Positions 3,477 through 38,776 of a stretch of 52,669 bases of DNA are shown here, piece after piece (within the stretch, counting starts at the first letter, position 1; each line of letters begins with the position of its first letter). The position numbers and the translations under genes were made by a program. The DNA comes from a virus (taxonomy: Duplodnaviria; Caudoviricetes): the IMG/VR virus record IMGVR_UViG_3300027969_002501, positions 1-52,669 of that record; one strand, written 5' to 3'. The notes beneath the pieces are model-generated. The model ran no database searches, was not told where the DNA came from, and saw only the letters and a list, made by a program, of their open reading frames with translations.

Positions 3477-4619
3477 CTACTGCTGTTTGTTAGTCAGTAC
3501 ATCCTGCTTAACAAAACCTTTACGCATGTCTGCGTCTCTTACTAAATGCCAAAGTTCTGGGCCTGGTGAAATGATTATTAGTTCAGTTCCTTTCTTTAAC
3601 AACCAAGTTCTTTGACTTTTGTCGTTTGCTTCTTTATAAAGATATGCGTCTTCTTTCAATACTCGTGTACCAAATAAATCCACAGGGTCTTTAGGTTGCT
3701 CTTTCTTTACTACTGCCGGCACAACAGGCATAACCTTTGATACCAATTCTGTTTCTGGTTTAGTTTCAGAGATAGGTTGAGTTTGAACTACAACATCTTT
3801 CTTCTCCTCTACTTTAATTTCTTGTTTTATTTCTACTTGTCCAGCTTTTTTAAATCTCCAAATGCCTTTCTTTTCGCCTTCAACAATCATATCGTAAACT
3901 GCCTGTTCAATGGCCACACGTACCGCATAGGTTGTAGGCTCATTCAGTGCCATGCCATTTTCCAATTCTAATGCTTTGGTTCCTGCGTCCACAAAACGTA
4001 ACATGCCCACGTTGTGTTGTGTGCTAAAAATAGTCTTGCTTACAGCATTAGATAACAATACTTCGCCACTGTTAACACTAATCAATCGCATTGATATAAC
4101 AATTTCATCTACACGATACTGTTGACTGCCACCAATACCTAAAAATCTAGCACCGTTACCTCCCGACCTTATATTGCTATCATAACCAATAATACCACCT
4201 TCAATCATTACTCCTGCTACTGTCATTGGTTTAAGTGGTCTAGCATCCTTGCCTTCGTAAACTTCTCGTTGGTTGCGTATCAACTGACGTTCTTTAATTA
4301 GATTATCTAGTCCAACACGTTCAACTACTTTAAACCAATTTTTTGAATCTTGTAGTGATTTAATTAAAAATACTTCGGCGCCTTGTGTTACTGCTTTACT
4401 AAACACTGCTAACTTGTCGTTAGGTTTCATCTGTCCTGTTTTGTCTTGGAACCCATAAACGGCAATAGTTATAGGAGGTCCATCTAACTCTGGTATCTTG
4501 GTAGTTAAACTTTCCCTTGGTTGTAGGGCCACTGGTTCTTCCTTGCCCGCATCCATCTGCACATGGGCACAGCCAGATAATGCTGTTGCTATTACAAATG
4601 ATAATATAAGTCTTTTCAT
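3477..4619 (-). CDS. csgG: Curli secretion channel CsgG with C-terminal SH3-like extension
   Basis: Lipobox LSGC; AVYGFQDKTGQ, SKAVTQGA, WFKVVERVGLDNLIKERQLIR, EGGIIGYDSN, GARFLGIG motifs. Confidence 0.95.
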   Translation of the reverse strand: MKRLILSFVIATALSGCAHVQMDAGKEEPVALQPRESLTTKIPELDGPPITIAVYGFQDKTGQMKPNDKLAVFSKAVTQGAEVFLIKSLQDSKNWFKVVERVGLDNLIKERQLIRNQREVYEGKDARPLKPMTVAGVMIEGGIIGYDSNIRSGGNGARFLGIGGSQQYRVDEIVISMRLISVNSGEVLLSNAVSKTIFSTQHNVGMLRFVDAGTKALELENGMALNEPTTYAVRVAIEQAVYDMIVEGEKKGIWRFKKAGQVEIKQEIKVEEKKDVVVQTQPISETKPETELVSKVMPVVPAVVKKEQPKDPVDLFGTRVLKEDAYLYKEANDKSQRTWLLKKGTELIIISPGPELWHLVRDADMRKGFVKQDVLTNKQQ

Positions 4620-8772: not shown

Positions 8773-10683
8773 TTACTTTGCTGTCTGTGTGTCAACTTCT
8801 GTGAAGCTCGCATCAACAGTTTGGCCATCTTTTGGTTGTTCTGTTTGTGCGGCATTCTTTGCGGCCTCGGCGGCCTGTTTCTTTTCAAACACCGGTTTAC
8901 CTGATTCAAAAAGATTCTGTACTGACTTTTGGATAGCTTCTGGATCTTCTCCGGCAACTGCTTCGTCAACACTTTTAAGTGCAGTTTCAACAGTAGTCTT
9001 TTCTTCTTCAGTCAATTGTTCTTTAACTTCTTCAAAGTCTTTCTTAAAGCTATGAGTAGCACCGTCAGCTTGATTACGTGCTTCGATGAGCTCTTTAGCT
9101 TTCTTATCGGACTCTGCGTTTTGTTCGGCTTCTTGCACCATACGTTCAATATCTTCCTTGCTTAGTCCGCCATCACTCTTAATAGTGATTTTGTTTTCTT
9201 TGCCAGTAGTTTTATCTTTAGCACTGATGTTCATAATGCCGTTAGCATCAATGTCAAATGTAACTTCAATTTGTGGCATACCGCGTGGCTGTGGTTGAAT
9301 GCCGTCTAAGTTAAACTCGCCTAGTGCTTTATTAAATTTGTATAGTTCACGTTCACCTTGCCCAACTTTAATAGTTACAGCAGGCTGATTGTCTTCAGCA
9401 GTACTAAATGTTTGGCTAGCTTTGGTTGGGATAGTTGTGTTCTTTTGAATAACTTTAGTAAACACACCGCCCATTGTTTCAATACCCAAGCTCAATGGAG
9501 TAACGTCTAACAACAGTACGTCTGTCTTGTCGCCTGCTAGCACAGCACCTTGTACTGCGGCACCTGCGGCAACAGCTTCGTCTGGGTTAACGTCTTTACG
9601 TGGAGCCTTGCCAAACAGCTTCTCAACTGCTTCTTGTACTTTGGGCATACGTGTTTGTCCGCCAACAAGAATAACTTCATCAATATCGGCCGCTGTTACT
9701 TTAGCATCTGACATGGCAATCTTACATGGCTCGATTGAACGCTTGATTAAGTCTTCGACCATTTGTTCGAACTTAGCACGAGTTAGTTTAACATTCAAGT
9801 GCTTAGGACCACTTGCATCTGCTGTGATGTATGGCAAGTTAACATCTGTGCTGGCCGCACTAGACAATTCAATCTTGGCCTTTTCAGCTGAGTCTTTCAA
9901 ACGTTGTAGTGCTAGTTGGTCTTGTTTAAGATCAATGCCGTTTTCTTTCTTGAATACTGCTACCAAGTGATCCATAATTGCTTGGTCAAAGTCTTCACCA
10001 CCAAGGAATGTATCACCGTTTGTTGACAATACTTCAATTTGTTTGTCGCCATCAATGTTGGCAATTTCAATAATGCTGATATCAAATGTACCACCACCCA
10101 AGTCGTATACCGCAATCTTGCGATCCTTCTTGTCTTGTTTGTCCACGCCATATGCTAGTGCGGCCGCTGTGGGCTCATTGATAATACGCAACACTTCTAA
10201 GCCAGCAATCTTACCAGCGTCCTTAGTTGCTTGACGTTGGCTGTCGTTGAAGTAAGCTGGTACTGTGATAACAGCCTGTGTTACTTCGTGACCAAGATAG
10301 TCTTCAGCTGTCTTTTTCATCTTACGCAATACTTCAGCACTTACTTGTTGTGGAGCAAGTTTTTGATCATTAGCTTCAATCCATGCATCTCCATTGTCAG
10401 CTCGGACAATGTTGTATGGCATCAGGCCAATATCTTTCTGTACTTCTTTTTCGTCAAACTTGCGGCCAATGAGGCGCTTGCTTGCGTAGATTGTATTTTT
10501 TGGGTTTGTTACTGCTTGTCGTTTAGCTGTAGCACCGACGAGAATTTCGTCTTTGGTGTAAGCCACGATTGATGGTGTTGTTCTAGCACCTTCGCTGTTT
10601 TCAATTATTTTAGCAACTCCGTTTTCTAGGATTGCTACACAGCTATTTGTTGTACCTAAGTCGATACCGATGATTTTGCTCAT
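8773..10683 (-). CDS. dnaK: Chaperone DnaK (Hsp70)
   Basis: [48 protein letters not shown]; full length 636 aa. Confidence 0.99.
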
Positions 10684-11908: not shown

Positions 11909-12308
11909 CTGCTTCATCCTCGTTGTCTTCGTTTTTAACTTGTTGAACTATCCAATCCAAATCGTAAATTCTGTTTTTGTTGATTAAACCATAAGGTGTA
12001 ATCTCGTCGTTAGTTATATAGTGTGTATTTGGTTGGGCTAACAAATAAGTGACAAATTTATGAGTAATCATATCACAGTTATCTACGTCAATGATAATAA
12101 CATCACATTGGTTGGCTACACTTAATAACCAATCAATATCTTGTTCGTTGTCGTCGTATACAAACACATTAATTTCTTCCATAATATGACTTAATATGGT
12201 TTGAAACTGTTGCTTAACATATAGTGATGGTTTCACTAATAAGTAGCCTAAGTTCATGTTGAACAATTTATCAGGCGGTGTTATCAGATTGATCTTTCCT
12301 AAGCTCAT
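11901..12308 (-). CDS. Hypothetical phage protein
   Basis: ORF with AAGGA SD before ATG 12308, overlapping neighbours. Confidence 0.75.
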
Positions 12309-12612
12309 ATATCCTTCTTGCAAAATATTCTAATGTTTCTTCATCGTACCCGTAAAAACGAGCACCATTTACTTTACAATCTTCCACAAAATTATAAAGT
12401 TTAGGTTCTAAATCCTTGTTTACTTGTATGCTTTGAAATCCATCTCGACCGTATTCCACATGCAATTGACTACGGGGTTTTAGATCGGTGTTTCTTTCAG
12501 TGATCCTTGACCATAATGTACTAGCGCCTTGTTCAGCGTTTTGTACATAGTCATTACTTATGATCGGTTTCTGATCTGTATCGATCCGTCTGGAGCCTTG
12601 GTCATATAAGTC
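12271..12612 (-). CDS. -1 frame extension of the upstream membrane protein (no convincing own start)
   Basis: Open from the A9G site at 12612 (DLYDQGSRR...YVQNAEQGASTLWSR...) to the stop at 12271. Confidence 0.7.
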   Translation of the reverse strand, partial: DLYDQGSRRIDTDQKPIISNDYVQNAEQGASTLWSRITERNTDLKPRSQLHVEYGRDGFQSIQVNKDLEPKLYNFVEDCKVNGARFYGYDEETLEYFARRIYELRKDQSDNTA

Positions 12613-13802
12613 TTTTTTTTTGATTCGTCGGGTTCTATAACTTCTGTAAGATCAGGCTTAGTGCGCTCATTGTTATGTTCAACAAGTTCAGGAAGTATTT
12701 GATATTTACGAGCTTCCTTCTCGACTACCTCTTTGTGTGCCTCTGCTTCTGCCTCTGCAATCATATTGTTCCATTGCTCTATTGGCTGTGGAATTTCTTG
12801 ATCTGACGATTCCTGTCCAGTTATATCACCTCCTAGTGCTGTAACAGGCGTTTCGCTTGGTGCCTCAATTTGATTAATATTTGTAGTTTGATCTGCTGTT
12901 GTGATTGGCTCAGGATAATCCGGTTCGTGATGGTCATCCAAAATGGTATATTCAACTTCGGGTTCTTTGATTGCTTCTGCAACTTCTTGTATAGGTTCGT
13001 CTACAATTTCTTCCAGTTTGGCTGGTTCAATTACTGCGGGTTCTTCTTTGCGCCAACCAAAGGTCATTTGTGCGGCCAATAACATGATAACTGCTAGAGG
13101 ATCAAATACAACTACAATAAGAACAATGATCCATGTTACTGCTTTTTCCAACATGTTTTCATCTGCGCCAGAGTTGCCGTAGATAAACTTGGCAATGTAT
13201 TTGATTGGGCCTACTTCTGCCTCAACCTTGCGTACTTCTGCCGCGATTGGAGCACGTTCTTGGCTAACGGCGGCAATAGTTTTCTGTTCGGCTGTGATCT
13301 CAGACTGAAGCCTTGCACGTTCTTTTTGCTGACTACGTCTAATTTGAACAGCTTTCTCGGCACCCTTTTCGTCACTGCTTCGGCCCATGACTTGGTCCAC
13401 AGCTTCATCCATTTGTTTAAGAGCTTTGCGGTTTGCATCTATGTTGTCTCTGCTGGTTTTAATCTTTTCGTCGTAGATAGCAATCTTACTTTGAACATCG
13501 CCTGACACTAAGTTTTGGTCGTTGTGTGCTTTACTAAGGAATCCAAAGATACCCATTGAAGTAATGAGCATCAGCACCATGACCGCAGTGATCATGTAAT
13601 ATTTCATGAAACGTGGAGCACGTTCCCAATTGGCTTTTAGCCAGCTAGCGCATACTAACTTGCCTACTTCTAAAGCTGATCCCATAATAATGATTGGAAT
13701 AGCCGCGGCAGAAAATATTGCGGTCAAGCCTACTACAGAATAGTAGATTGCGACCGCAGATATTGTTAAACCAGTTAATAGGAGTAAGTACGCGAGTATC
13801 AT
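12558..13802 (-). CDS. Multi-pass membrane protein with coiled coil and acidic tail
   Basis: Three N-terminal TM helices, coiled coil, one more TM helix, E/P-rich tail; ends shortly after SKKK encoded by TCA AAA AAA AAG. Confidence 0.85.
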   Translation of the reverse strand: MILAYLLLLTGLTISAVAIYYSVVGLTAIFSAAAIPIIIMGSALEVGKLVCASWLKANWERAPRFMKYYMITAVMVLMLITSMGIFGFLSKAHNDQNLVSGDVQSKIAIYDEKIKTSRDNIDANRKALKQMDEAVDQVMGRSSDEKGAEKAVQIRRSQQKERARLQSEITAEQKTIAAVSQERAPIAAEVRKVEAEVGPIKYIAKFIYGNSGADENMLEKAVTWIIVLIVVVFDPLAVIMLLAAQMTFGWRKEEPAVIEPAKLEEIVDEPIQEVAEAIKEPEVEYTILDDHHEPDYPEPITTADQTTNINQIEAPSETPVTALGGDITGQESSDQEIPQPIEQWNNMIAEAEAEAHKEVVEKEARKYQILPELVEHNNERTKPDLTEVIEPDESKKKTYMTKAPDGSIQIRNRS

Positions 13803-16020: not shown

Positions 16021-16347
16021 TTAAACTCTGAACGATTCGCCGCAACCACATCGATCACGTTCATTTGGGTTTTGGAAGTCAAACCCTTCATTGAGTCCAT
16101 TGCGGACCCAATCTACTGTTAGTCCATTTAAATATGCTTGTGACTTAGCATCTACCAACACAACAAAATCTCGTTGGGCATAATTGGTTACACCCGGTTC
16201 TGCGGTGTATTCGTCTACATATTCGATAGTGTATGCTAATCCACTACATCCAGTAGTTCTCACACCCAATCGAATGCCAACGCCTCGACCACGTTTTTCT
16301 AAATTCTGCTTGATTTTTTTAGTGGCTGTTTCGGTTACGGTAATCAT
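16021..16347 (-). CDS. iscA: Fe-S cluster A-type carrier IscA
   Basis: RLGVRTTGCSGLAY...FQNPNERDRCGCGESF. Confidence 0.96.
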   Translation of the reverse strand: MITVTETATKKIKQNLEKRGRGVGIRLGVRTTGCSGLAYTIEYVDEYTAEPGVTNYAQRDFVVLVDAKSQAYLNGLTVDWVRNGLNEGFDFQNPNERDRCGCGESFRV

Positions 16348-16705
16348 TTACAGCGGCCTTGATAGCATCTTCTGCAAGTATCGAGCAGTGAATTTTAACG
16401 GGCGGTAACGCCAATTCACTAGCGATATCTGAGTTCTTAATGGCCTGTGCCTCGTCCAAGTTCTTGCCCTTGAGCCACTCGGTGACAAGACTAGAACTAG
16501 CAATAGCACTACCACACCCATAAGTCTTAAACTTTGCATCTGTAATAATACCCGTATCATGATCTACTTTTATCTGTAGTTTCATTACATCGCCACAAGC
16601 GGGCGCACCGACCATACCAGTACCAATGTCAGGATCATCTTTTGAGAATGATCCAACATTCCTTGGATTTTCGTAGTGGTCGATTACCTTATCGCTGTAT
16701 GCCAT
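16319..16705 (-). CDS. iscU: Fe-S scaffold IscU
   Basis: YSDKVIDHYENPRNVG, GAPACGDVM, GCGSAIAS, LPPVKIHCS. Confidence 0.98.
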   Translation of the reverse strand: MAYSDKVIDHYENPRNVGSFSKDDPDIGTGMVGAPACGDVMKLQIKVDHDTGIITDAKFKTYGCGSAIASSSLVTEWLKGKNLDEAQAIKNSDIASELALPPVKIHCSILAEDAIKAAVNDYRNRNSH

Positions 16706-25015: not shown

Positions 25016-25345
25016 TTATTGTGCTCGTTTTGTAGCAGACATTGCTGTACGGTCTAATACATCCGGCCCAGGTTGTCCTTGTACTTCTGGATTCTCTTCT
25101 GGACTGTTGGTATCAATGACTAATCCGTTTTTGTCGAATTTTTTAATTATTCCACTGGCTTTGAGCGGATCGTTAGGATCATTCCAACGTGCGACAAATC
25201 TTTTATATTCAATGCCAGGTGCGTGTCTTTGAGCTAATTCTTGACTCAGTGCGCTCCAACTTAATGGAGCGACTGAACCTTTGTTTATTGCACCGGCCTG
25301 TACAGCCTGAAGTGTTGCCAATAATGGATCTATGTCTTCAGTTAC
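25016..25345 (-). CDS. -1 frame extension of the upstream core-like protein
   Basis: Frame is open from the A9G site (VTEDIDPLLATLQAVQAG...); only a TTG start without SD otherwise. Confidence 0.7.
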   Translation of the reverse strand, partial: VTEDIDPLLATLQAVQAGAINKGSVAPLSWSALSQELAQRHAPGIEYKRFVARWNDPNDPLKASGIIKKFDKNGLVIDTNSPEENPEVQGQPGPDVLDRTAMSATKRAQ

Positions 25346-26370
25346 TTTTTTTTTGATTGCGCTAACATTATGCCTAGTTTACGGCTATAGTTTGATTCTC
25401 TCATTTCGCGGCCTGCTGGGCTTGCTGGTTCTTCTTCGCCTGCATCCATTCCTACATCCATACCTGCATCCATCTCTGGTTCGCCACCTGGCATGCCTGG
25501 AGTTGTAGGAGCTGATCCCATCATCTCTCCGCCGCCTTGGCCTGATGCAATTGACAATCCTGAGCTTAATGCACCACGTGCCTTTTCTAAGCCTGCATAA
25601 ATTTCTTCTAGTGCAGGACGAACTGCTTGTGTATATTGTTCAGCAACATCTGAACCTAATTCTTCTCTTATAGAGTCTAATAGTTGTAATAGTTGTTCGG
25701 CTTTCATAGCTGACACATCGTCAAGCCAGCCTGTAATACGATCAACCATGTCCTTTGTGGACATAATGATTTTGGCTTTTTCTTCTTCGCCTTCTTCTAG
25801 ATATACAATGTGGTTTGCTACGCTTTCTCGTAGATCGTATCGTGTTACTAATTCTGCGGCTAATTCGCCTTGGTCGCTTTCGCCTAAGTTGATGCGTCGG
25901 ATAGCATCAGCAATCCAACTAGTTGGAACTGAATGTTCTCTAGCTTTGATAGCTAGTTTACCTAAATAAATGTTATGGTCCATACTTTCCTCTGCTTTTT
26001 TCTTAAATTTGTTTTTGCGTAATGCCGCAAAGTCTGATTTTTCAAGTTTGCCGTTTTTATTAACGTCTAATTTCTCTTGCTTGCCTGGCAAATTATCTGC
26101 GCCTTCTTCCATTGCGGCTTCGCGTTCTAAAATTTCTTGATTGATAACATCATGTAGCATACGTACTTTTTGGTACTGTGGGCTAGAGTTAACACTGTCA
26201 AAGCTTTCGCTAACTTCAAACTGGCTCATTTCTGTGCGCATTTTGTTGCGGGCATCTTCTAACTGGGCATCGCTGAACTTTTCCAAGTTCAATTTGTAGC
26301 CCAACTGCTTGGCCATATTTTCGTTAAGTCTTTTACTTGTAACGGGTTGAGAAAGTTCTCTAATGTTCAT
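25342..26370 (-). CDS. Acidic helical prohead core/scaffold-like protein
   Basis: E-rich helical; many hydrophobic-x-E sites (VSES, LRES, MRES); ends SKKK* on TCA AAA AAA AAG TAA. Confidence 0.6.
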   Translation of the reverse strand: MNIRELSQPVTSKRLNENMAKQLGYKLNLEKFSDAQLEDARNKMRTEMSQFEVSESFDSVNSSPQYQKVRMLHDVINQEILEREAAMEEGADNLPGKQEKLDVNKNGKLEKSDFAALRKNKFKKKAEESMDHNIYLGKLAIKAREHSVPTSWIADAIRRINLGESDQGELAAELVTRYDLRESVANHIVYLEEGEEEKAKIIMSTKDMVDRITGWLDDVSAMKAEQLLQLLDSIREELGSDVAEQYTQAVRPALEEIYAGLEKARGALSSGLSIASGQGGGEMMGSAPTTPGMPGGEPEMDAGMDVGMDAGEEEPASPAGREMRESNYSRKLGIMLAQSKKK

Positions 26371-37354: not shown

Positions 37355-38776
37355 CTAGGCAGACAGTGTAGTATTAAAGTGACTTCCTGCGATTTGTTGA
37401 CCGCCTTGTTTTTGTAATTTATGTAACCAACCAATATCTGTTCCTGGACCATAGGCCGCAGGATTAGTAGCAGAGAAGTTTCGTTGATTGCGACTCACAC
37501 TTGGCAAATATTTTATTGCACCAGTACAAATGCCATGCAGTTGTCTAGCGTTAGGGCCACGAACAAAGTTTGCACTAGGTTTATGTCCATCTGCTCTAGT
37601 TCCAGTAACTGCTTGAAATTGATTACGTGCTTTCAATGCACCTATAACTCCATTCTTGCCGTAGTCTCTTGCACGATTAAGTATACTGCCCATGACCATT
37701 GCATAAGACTTTGCACTATAAGCACTTTCAGCACTTGTAGCTCTAACTAACCAATCCCACTCGCTATCAGTCATTGGCCTGCCAAGATAATCTTCTGCTG
37801 ATTTTCTAGCCTTTTCAGTTAATTGATCTTTTGGAATATTGCCATAATCTTCAATATCAGAATCATCAACGTCAGTTACTCCAGCAAGTTTACCTTTAAC
37901 ATCTGCTTGTGTACTCTTTTCAAATTTGATACCTTTACTAGCAATGAGTTTGTTTAAGGCACCAACTGTCTCGGGCCCCGGATCACCATCTACTTCTAAA
38001 CCGTTATCTCTTTGAAATTGTTTTACTGCTCCACTTGTTTCAGGACCCCGTACTCCATCTACTCCATGTCGAGGTAATTTATATCCTAATGCTAATAGTG
38101 CTCGCTGTATATCTGCCACAGCAATACCAACTCGTCCTTGCGGAACTGCTATAGATAATTGTGTATTAATATTTTGTTTTGGTTCAGCTTGTTGTGCCGA
38201 TTGAGGAACAATAGCTTGTACAGGTTTAACTGCCATACCAGCTTGTTTTAATTTTGCATAGCCGCCGTACGGATGTATACCATCTCCTTTACCGCTATGC
38301 ATTGCTGGATCAAAGTCTTCTAAAGGACCAAGAAAAGTTGCGCCCGAATCACTGGCCATTGATTCTAATTGTTGGTTAATACCTGTTAGGTCAACAACAT
38401 ATTTTTTACCGCCAGTCCAACTTGTACCAGGTTGTGGTTTTGATTTAGTACTGCCAGTACCAACTAATGCTACTGTAGCACCTGCATCTTTGAGAGCTTT
38501 TAACTGTTGAGCTACTGCACCAAGGCCGCCGTTGCCAGGCTTTCTAATACCACCTTCTAATTCAATAGGTGCGCTATTACTTGCTCCACTGCTAAGAATA
38601 ACTGTGGCACCTTTGGCTTTGCCTGACGCAACAAACGCATTAACTCTTCTCAACGTTTCAGTACAATTGATGCCGCCTTTGGCATAAGGTTCAGCGCCTC
38701 CAATACCAACAGCAATACTGTCGCCTATAATAACAACATTATTTGATGCTTCTAAAATAATATCTAATATTCTCAT
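37355..38776 (-). CDS. Modular protein: SGNH-like domain, peptidoglycan-binding domain, SleB-like hydrolase
   Basis: IIGDSIAVG...GDGIHP; VADIQRALLALGY...DGVRGPETSGAVKQFQRDNGLEVDGDPGPET; LVRATSAES...ILNR...NQFQAV. Confidence 0.8.
   Translation of the reverse strand: MRILDIILEASNNVVIIGDSIAVGIGGAEPYAKGGINCTETLRRVNAFVASGKAKGATVILSSGASNSAPIELEGGIRKPGNGGLGAVAQQLKALKDAGATVALVGTGSTKSKPQPGTSWTGGKKYVVDLTGINQQLESMASDSGATFLGPLEDFDPAMHSGKGDGIHPYGGYAKLKQAGMAVKPVQAIVPQSAQQAEPKQNINTQLSIAVPQGRVGIAVADIQRALLALGYKLPRHGVDGVRGPETSGAVKQFQRDNGLEVDGDPGPETVGALNKLIASKGIKFEKSTQADVKGKLAGVTDVDDSDIEDYGNIPKDQLTEKARKSAEDYLGRPMTDSEWDWLVRATSAESAYSAKSYAMVMGSILNRARDYGKNGVIGALKARNQFQAVTGTRADGHKPSANFVRGPNARQLHGICTGAIKYLPSVSRNQRNFSATNPAAYGPGTDIGWLHKLQKQGGQQIAGSHFNTTLSA

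Follow-up and report, generated by a model that had tools for sequence, protein, structure and literature searches.

The capsid protein 10A/10B of phage T7 and gpG/gpGT of phage lambda receive a C-terminal extension by -1 frameshifting. The same kind of extension is reported for the major head protein of Lactobacillus phage A2 (cited in PRFect, PMC10885494). Here we describe a comparable element at the end of a gene of 342 amino acids (aa) in the IMG/VR virus record IMGVR_UViG_3300027969_002501, a linear stretch of 52,669 bases that was analysed as a whole and is called the window below. CheckV estimates a completeness of 14%; the record is therefore a fragment of a very large phage, and nearly all genes in the window lie on the minus strand. 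The window contains the 14-mer AATCAAAAAAAAAG twice: site 2, the subject of this analysis, is the copy on the minus strand from 25358 to 25345 at the end of the 342-aa gene, and site 1 is the copy in a 414-aa gene. As in T7, A2 and lambda, a slip near the gene end would add a C-terminal domain to a fixed minority of what may be an assembly or virion protein. Site 2 differs from them in its slip site, in its carrier, which belongs to another, uncharacterised protein family without a Pfam family, and in its extension, whose positional orthologue in relatives is a gene that stands alone and bears a tag.

The slip site resembles that of E. coli dnaX (tau/gamma), which also uses A_AAA_AAG in the same phase, gives products sharing their N-terminus and has a stop close to the shift. 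However, the shifted product of dnaX is the shorter one, as its frame stops almost at once, whereas that of site 2 is longer; dnaX possesses an upstream Shine-Dalgarno (SD)-like element and a 3' stem-loop, neither of which is conserved at site 2; and site 2 has nine A's (A9) with two overlapping heptamers. The dnaX gene of Thermus thermophilus is similar in having a run of exactly nine, on which one extra base in the mRNA would yield the alternative product (PMC5009743). Unlike that gene, site 2, known here from assembled sequences, conserves a reading phase and an adjacent stop, which transcriptional slippage does not need.

In phage T4, internal proteins reach the prohead core by means of N-terminal capsid targeting sequences of 10-20 residues, which gp21 removes (PMC5694885, PMC3012670). 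Similar to these internal proteins, several window proteins and the free-standing homologues of the extension carry short N-terminal tags, and relatives encode a Peptidase_S77. The window domain, known here from its genes, differs in being itself untagged, and recoding would place it on another protein. By its layout, site 2 joins the known phage slips at gene ends that add a C-terminal domain; new are the uncharacterised family and the unusual A9-plus-stop site. No published description of this family or site was found in searches of the open-access literature.

Layout and conservation of site 2

The 3' end of the 342-aa gene reads GCG CAA TCA AAA AAA AAG TAA (5' to 3'). Its A9 run contains two overlapping heptamers of the form X_XXY_YYZ in the zero-frame phase, as in a -1 ribosomal frameshift site: A_AAA_AAA (25354-25348) and A_AAA_AAG (25351-25345). 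The -1 frame reads IKKK and then VTEDIDPLLATLQAVQAG..., and is open for 109 codons past KKK, giving a predicted fusion of 342+109 = 451 aa. In the window this frame offers just two canonical starts, TTG at extension codon 9 (25321) and ATG at extension codon 102. The 14-mer is present exactly twice (12612-12625 and 25345-25358, both minus strand; 0.13 expected), a count reached in none of 100 dinucleotide shuffles. The two sites are the only A9 runs of the entire record and the only runs of at least eight A's in window genes, where 10.7+/-2.4 are expected from synonymous-codon shuffling. The first-pass annotation had described the end of the 342-aa gene, the shared 14-mer, the 109-codon -1 frame and a product of about 451 aa, and every checkable detail of that description is correct.

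A first homologue search retrieved 13 distinct loci and 12 relatives (L006 and L016 share one contig). Eleven relatives, with 49-87% identity, all end in TCAAAAAAAAAGTAA with an open -1 frame; the ending and the open frame are absent from L015, at 27% identity. The open reading frame (ORF) downstream in L015 resembles the extension by eye, and was rejected as a homologue at an hhalign probability of 0.5%. A second, broader search used 33 aligned homologues as query, and 80 of its 137 confirmed loci were retained, one of which runs off its contig. All 79 assessable loci (52-87% protein identity) keep NCA-A9-[G/A/C]-TAA and, behind it, an open -1 frame of 100-121 codons. The variants are TCA...G TAA (57 loci), TCA...A TAA (12), TCA...C TAA (9) and CCA...G TAA (1); the base after A9 is hence G in 58, A in 12 and C in 9 loci, which makes the run A10 in 12 of them. 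The stop is TAA in 79/79, the extension opens with GTA, ATA or CTA, and 53 junctions are non-redundant. The same site is also present in a more distant contig of 275 kb (L193).

The 342-aa protein has 2041 homologues at E<=1e-3, and the best 120 of these, 305-361 aa long, all end in [S/A/T]KK[K/N]. Contigs from RNA libraries of two other studies span the A9 run with 0 differences and 0 gaps (X16, 25216-25424; X8, 25296-25514); these are assembled contigs, and assembly drops minor variants. Among the DNA runs, X1, possibly the source of the window, is the only one that covers the exact site, and X2 has no cover there. From the slip onward the -1 ORF is conserved coding sequence without a start of its own, as expected for a frameshift site. 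Because the same A9 and stop are kept in every related phage examined, we conclude from this comparison that site 2 is a genuine programmed -1 recoding signal, through which one gene would give two proteins. The coordinates are collected in Table 1.

Table 1. Positions in the window of site 2, its two reading frames, site 1 and the ORFs that open with a tag motif.
Feature	Position	Strand	Remarks
Zero-frame gene, 342 aa (short form)	25342..26370	-	starts MNIRELS, ends ...LAQSKKK then TAA
Slip site TCA AAA AAA AAG	25345..25356	-	A9 run at 25354-25346
TAA stop immediately 3' of the slip site	25342..25344	-	from sequence
-1-frame extension, 109 codons (VTEDIDPLL...KRAQ)	25019..25345	-	stop at 25016-25018
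Junction motif V-T-E (hydrophobic-x-E), extension codons 1-3	25337..25345	-	candidate head-protease site
Site 1, same 14-mer	12612..12625	-	in 414-aa gene 12558..13802; from sequence
Tagged ORF starts	26370, 27065, 27748, 28439, 38776, 6698, 7923, 45376	-	M-x-[ILVFM]-x-[ED]-[LFIVMY]

Ribosomal and transcriptional slippage

Ribosomal -1 frameshifting on the in-phase A_AAA_AAA/A_AAA_AAG next to the stop is the reading we favour and has, in our estimate, an even chance of being the main mechanism. Most ribosomes would stop at UAA and give the 342-aa form, while a minority would enter the -1 frame on the A-run and give a 451-aa protein (...LAQSKKK-VTEDIDPLL...) with an extra C-terminal domain, expected to be the minor product. 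Lys-tRNAs would move back by one base on the two in-phase heptamers, which overlap and both give SKKK-V, and the adjacent UAA may assist through ribosome pausing (a 'shifty stop'). RNA polymerase slippage on A9 probably adds some transcripts with one extra A that encode the identical fusion, and ribosomal and polymerase slippage probably both occur. Programmed transcriptional slippage as the leading process, with the ribosomal slip minor, stands only a little below even: the polymerase would stutter on A9 (template T9), and some mRNAs would gain one A and read TCA AAA AAA AAA GTA ACT, encoding the same 451-aa protein.

The reading phase argues for the ribosome. The heptamers lie in the shift-prone phase at both sites, and seven site-1 variants with eight A's (TCT AAA AAA AAG) lose the 5' A and keep A_AAA_AAG in phase, whereas a polymerase needs no phase. 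The invariant adjacent TAA, kept although GTG-A (TGA) also encodes Val, has no role in a transcriptional model. In E. coli, A_AAA_AAG is the most shift-prone heptamer according to the review by Atkins (2016, PMC5009743).

A codon-shuffle test was applied to 404 neighbouring genes of related loci (L003-L176), with the two recoded families removed and 300 synonymous-codon shuffles. A6G in phase 0 showed no depletion (76 observed, 77.2 expected), whereas in the shift-prone phase it was 3.3-fold depleted (12 observed, 39.8+/-5.8 expected), and none of the 300 shuffles was as low. A6[ACT] was also most depleted in the shift-prone phase (59 observed, 179 expected), and a depletion of A6N that depends on phase speaks against the polymerase. 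Homopolymer runs are avoided as well, those of at least seven A's numbering 62 where 169 were expected. In the window, in-phase A_AAA_AAG is found at the two sites only, and ten A6G lie in phase 0. In phase 1, the 404 genes contained two A6G, with 16.7 expected.

Run length, on the other hand, suits the polymerase. Nine A/T are the threshold at which bacterial RNA polymerase slips efficiently, matching the 9-10 bp hybrid, and Thermus dnaX uses such a run (PMC5009743). At site 2 the run reaches at least nine A's in 79/79 loci, including its 5'-most A, which is a synonymous third position; the invariance of this A is explained by the first heptamer or by selection on run length alike. The base after the run varies between G, A and C, and is A or C in 21 of the 79 loci. 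Heptamers with A or C as last base shift much less in E. coli. Two site-1 contigs (L073 and L074) possess A10 and a single long ORF, and their short-tail frame is still conserved; both frames remain coding, which suits polymerase slippage better. Long runs are depleted in the 404 genes, with 9 runs of at least A8 observed and 50.6 expected, and one run of at least T7 observed and 10.3 expected. Finally, the relative G001 encodes tRNA-Lys(CUU) beside tRNA-Lys(UUU), which should lower slipping on AAG.

Besides these points, most of which also weigh against the ribosome as the main agent, several features of assisted frameshifting are missing. RNAalifold found 0 pairs in 52 sequences where a conserved stimulatory RNA structure 5-9 nt downstream was looked for, and the window junction offers only a 6-bp CUGAAG/CUUCAG stem (z = -2.0). 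An upstream SD-like element stands at a spacing of about 10-14 nt in sites of the dnaX type; no such stimulator was found at site 2 by reading the sequence, the nearest AGG being 18-21 nt upstream. Rfam gave no match in the window. The 451-aa product is predicted from sequence, and searches with the extension, its alignment and its profile revealed no natural single-frame protein that joins both parts of site 2, the searches among longer proteins being weak evidence. The transcriptional reading has difficulties of its own in addition to the phase and the stop. RNA-library contigs of two studies were assembled as A9, which is a weak objection since assembly drops minor variants, and an A9 run is found within an ordinary 546-codon gene of G001.

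A hairpin of 7 bp, CCNTTRR-N8-YYAANGG, spans the Pro-Leu codons of the extension, 14-26 nt downstream of TAA and at a distance of 17-29 nt from the heptamer. Of the 52 sequences, 26 form it perfectly (e.g. L127:3496-3525 and L165:3508-3537); the clade of the window itself is without it. The third, silent position of the Pro codon changes together with the base paired to it, whose change is non-synonymous (pairs CG 22, UA 5, AU 4, GC 3 and UG 3), with a covariation of 0.213 compared to 0.143 in shuffles, none of 500 being as high. The hairpin is too distant from the slip for a classical stimulator.

Regarding the tRNAs, the genome of G001 gave 29 Rfam tRNA matches, and ARAGORN, run on seven loci covering most of them, detected tRNA-Lys(UUU) and tRNA-Lys(CUU) as adjacent genes (L196:1011-1165). 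The tRNA scans of the window found none. The window encodes an IscU (16319-16705, minus strand; NifU_N, E 6e-55) and an IscA-like protein (16021-16347, minus strand; Fe-S_biosyn), and IscU is also present in G001 and G002. In E. coli, tRNA-Lys thiolation and IscU compete for IscS, and IscU thereby alters the lambda Lys-codon frameshifting that yields gpG/gpGT (Maynard et al. 2012, PMC3296357). A link of IscU and IscA to the two Lys-run sites is speculation by analogy.

The extension domain and its carrier

The 52 non-identical extensions align from their first residues, with 26-73% identity to that of the window. Residues P7, L8, Y47, F50 and A101 are invariant, and E3, D6, L12, W30, R53, W54, D71, G74 and A104 nearly so. 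In the AlphaFold model (predicted local distance difference test, pLDDT, 76), residues 1-80 form a small alpha/beta domain, mostly at 75-91, to which a flexible linker and a C-terminal helix are attached; as modelled, the conserved extension brings a folded domain of about 80 residues. Comparison of this fold with the PDB gave nothing at E<=1e-3, only weak winged-helix-like rows with a probability of at most 0.44, and BFVD returned one match, an uncharacterised phage protein of 117 aa. The extension has no Pfam match, and neither it nor its long homologues match PHROGs. Matches in the ESM Atlas belong to unnamed viral clusters only.

A profile search of 1.84 billion representatives detected 421 relatives of the extension at E<=1e-3. 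Thirty-six of the 150 best profile matches start with M-x(2,3)-[ED]-[LFIVM], about 33 of which, by eye, are true free-standing proteins of 106-134 aa. These homologues carry a short N-terminal tag of the form M-x-hydrophobic-x-E, and in an alignment of 13 of them M1 and E5 are invariant (13/13). The domain is N-terminal in four longer proteins of 261-771 aa among the same 150 (P0161, P0166, P0182 and P0267). Comparison of the 342-aa profile with the extension profile and with P0182 revealed no real similarity.

In L189, L190 and L192, a tagged gene with its own ATG follows directly behind a homologue of the 342-aa protein (BLASTP 1e-32), after one base or with an ATGA overlap. Over its first 110 aa, the product of this downstream gene aligns with the profile of the extension (hhalign 99.2%, E 3e-19). 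Its downstream flank has the same exonuclease (L189, L190 and L192) and the same tailspike-like gene (L189 and L192) as the window locus. Because both parts are homologous and the flanking genes are the same, the window extension is, by sequence comparison, orthologous by position to a gene that relatives keep separate and tagged. The recoded clade, as aligned, has lost this start and tag, and KKK-[VIL]-x-E precedes the domain.

The standalone gene abutting the upstream stop in other lineages, together with the TTG at the 9th codon in the window, could suggest that the downstream ORF is a separate gene here too, translated from TTG 25321 or by termination-reinitiation after TAA. This is very improbable. 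The residues ahead of the TTG, [VIL]-x-E and DPL, are the best conserved of the extension, its first codon is GTA, ATA or CTA, and most relatives have no canonical start near the stop. The first start in the -1 frame lies anywhere between the 2nd and the 108th codon, and past codon 26 and the invariant DPL helix in 25 of the 53 non-redundant junctions; upstream of the slip, the -1 frame is free of ATG, GTG and TTG in all 53. A separate start of translation at TTG 25321, the nearest in the window, was rejected because no upstream start exists and the first start is often past the DPL helix, and on this point the first-pass annotation, which read a programmed -1 site, is supported. Even less probable, and effectively refuted, is that a homopolymer miscount or a recent frameshift mutation split one 451-aa gene, the miscount being a concern already raised in the first-pass annotation: homopolymers are error-prone and DNA evidence for the exact window comes from a single possible source run (X1), but A9 and the stop are identical in 79/79 loci of many separate assemblies at 52-87% identity, the best 120 homologous proteins all terminate at the same point, RNA-library contigs of two other studies read A9, and homologue, profile and longer-protein searches found no single-frame form of about 450 aa.

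The AlphaFold model of the 342-aa protein (pLDDT 70) consists of helices only, with disordered Gly/Pro/Met/Glu-rich linkers at 90-127 and 279-319. The protein has no Pfam family and a single, weak PHROGs match over 86 residues (phrog_14154 'virion structural protein', E 1.8e-8). Fold matches are uncharacterised phage proteins only; among them are proteins of the jumbo phages RaK2, Atu_ph07 and PaBG, each with an E above 1e-3. In isolated phage genomes, the 342-aa gene has no match at either the nucleotide or the protein level. That the carrier is prohead-core-like is plausible from its sequence and model, on circumstantial evidence.

The motif M-x-[ILVFM]-x-[ED]-[LFIVMY] opens 8 of the 86 window ORFs, including the 342-aa gene (MNIREL) and its three upstream neighbours, and the tagged ORFs may form a family with head-targeting or propeptide tags. 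Several of them, by eye, also have a hydrophobic-x-E at residues 7-9. One tagged protein (37355-38776) has a peptidoglycan-binding, endolysin-like domain. A Peptidase_S77 of the T4 gp21 type was found in the relatives G001 (356 kb, 96% complete; E 6.5e-27) and G003, and was not seen in the window, a 14% fragment, nor in G002. The gp21 protease cleaves after Leu/Ile-x-Glu. The first-pass annotation had pointed to V-T-E at the start of the extension, and a hydrophobic-x-E at this putative release point is indeed present in all 52 extensions: [LIVMF]-x-E falls inside the first 12 residues in 52/52 and 3 residues ahead of [DE]PL in 44/52. The junction [VIL]-x-E could be cut on its C-terminal side by a gp21-like protease, and the fusion would replace the N-terminal tag as the route of the domain into the prohead. 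Delivery into the prohead with release of the extension by the protease is plausible, if circumstantial, and a reasonable idea because of the features of the carrier, the tags, the Peptidase_S77 of relatives and the parallel with T4.

Taken as a whole, a longer chain of events is unlikely. Among the uncultured jumbo phages of fresh water that make up this clade, recoding would have replaced the targeting tag: with start and tag lost, the cargo would be frameshifted onto the C-terminus of the upstream, scaffold-like protein, enter the prohead at a fixed sub-stoichiometric dose and be released by a gp21-type protease at [VIL]-x-E. The site-1 gene would share the signal, and the IscU/IscA and tRNA-Lys genes could tune the slip through tRNA-Lys thiolation.

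Site 1 and the extent of the signal

Site 1 has TCA-A9-G, the same 12-mer in the same phase as site 2. Its zero frame continues for 17 further conserved codons (TYMTK...), and its -1 frame for 113 codons to 12274 (stop 12271-12273), with a predicted fusion of about 510 aa. The 414-aa gene encodes a weak tetraspanin-like N-terminus (Pfam). Relatives among isolates were found only for this protein and are distant, the best being Pelagibacter phage Mosig (44.6% over 58%). Eighty related loci were compared, of which 5 run off and 75 are assessable. The run is TCA-A9-G in 61 loci, CTA-A9-G in 2, TCT-A8-G in 7 and A11 in 1, and in the remaining 4 no comparable run lies close to the end of the ORF. 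Three of these 4, the A10 loci L073 and L074 together with L077, have single ORFs of 481-500 aa reading into the extension; L055 differs. The -1 extension counts 105-115 codons in 63 loci and 39-42 in 8, and the zero-frame stop varies in relatives (TAA, TAG, TGA). Because natural single-frame fusions exist, the two parts at site 1 are, to judge from these loci, meant as one chain.

The A9 runs of G002 are these two sites only. G001 has four runs of at least A9, two of them these sites; one looks intergenic, with only short open frames around it, and one lies inside the 546-codon ORF. This last run (L183; G001:C1:163015-163023) is in the shift-prone phase (CAA AAA AAA ACT) and has no alternative-frame ORF; it may be a slippery run that is tolerated, or else a regulatory site that went unnoticed. 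The suggestion that two identical sites reflect a genome-wide recoding signal was therefore right about the sites and overstated about the genome, as the A9 scan of G001 and G002 marks two genes only.

Other genes of the window include a full-length Hsp70/DnaK (8773-10683, minus strand; PF00012, E 1e-258), a homologue of the curli channel CsgG (3477-4619, minus strand; PF03783, E 5.5e-53), the large and small subunits of ribonucleotide reductase, a glutaredoxin and an NAD-dependent epimerase.

The recoded protein has more than 2000 homologues. In databases, the extension appears as many small ORFs starting at internal codons, and gene callers split or truncate the long forms. The A9-plus-stop layout is a good test case for telling ribosomal from polymerase slippage. 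A tagged separate gene in some phages and a frameshift fusion in others, at the same genomic position, provide a clean natural experiment on protein ratios set by recoding. For a large group of phages, abundant in lake metagenomes, the finding adds a recoding signal that two genes share and that is very well conserved.

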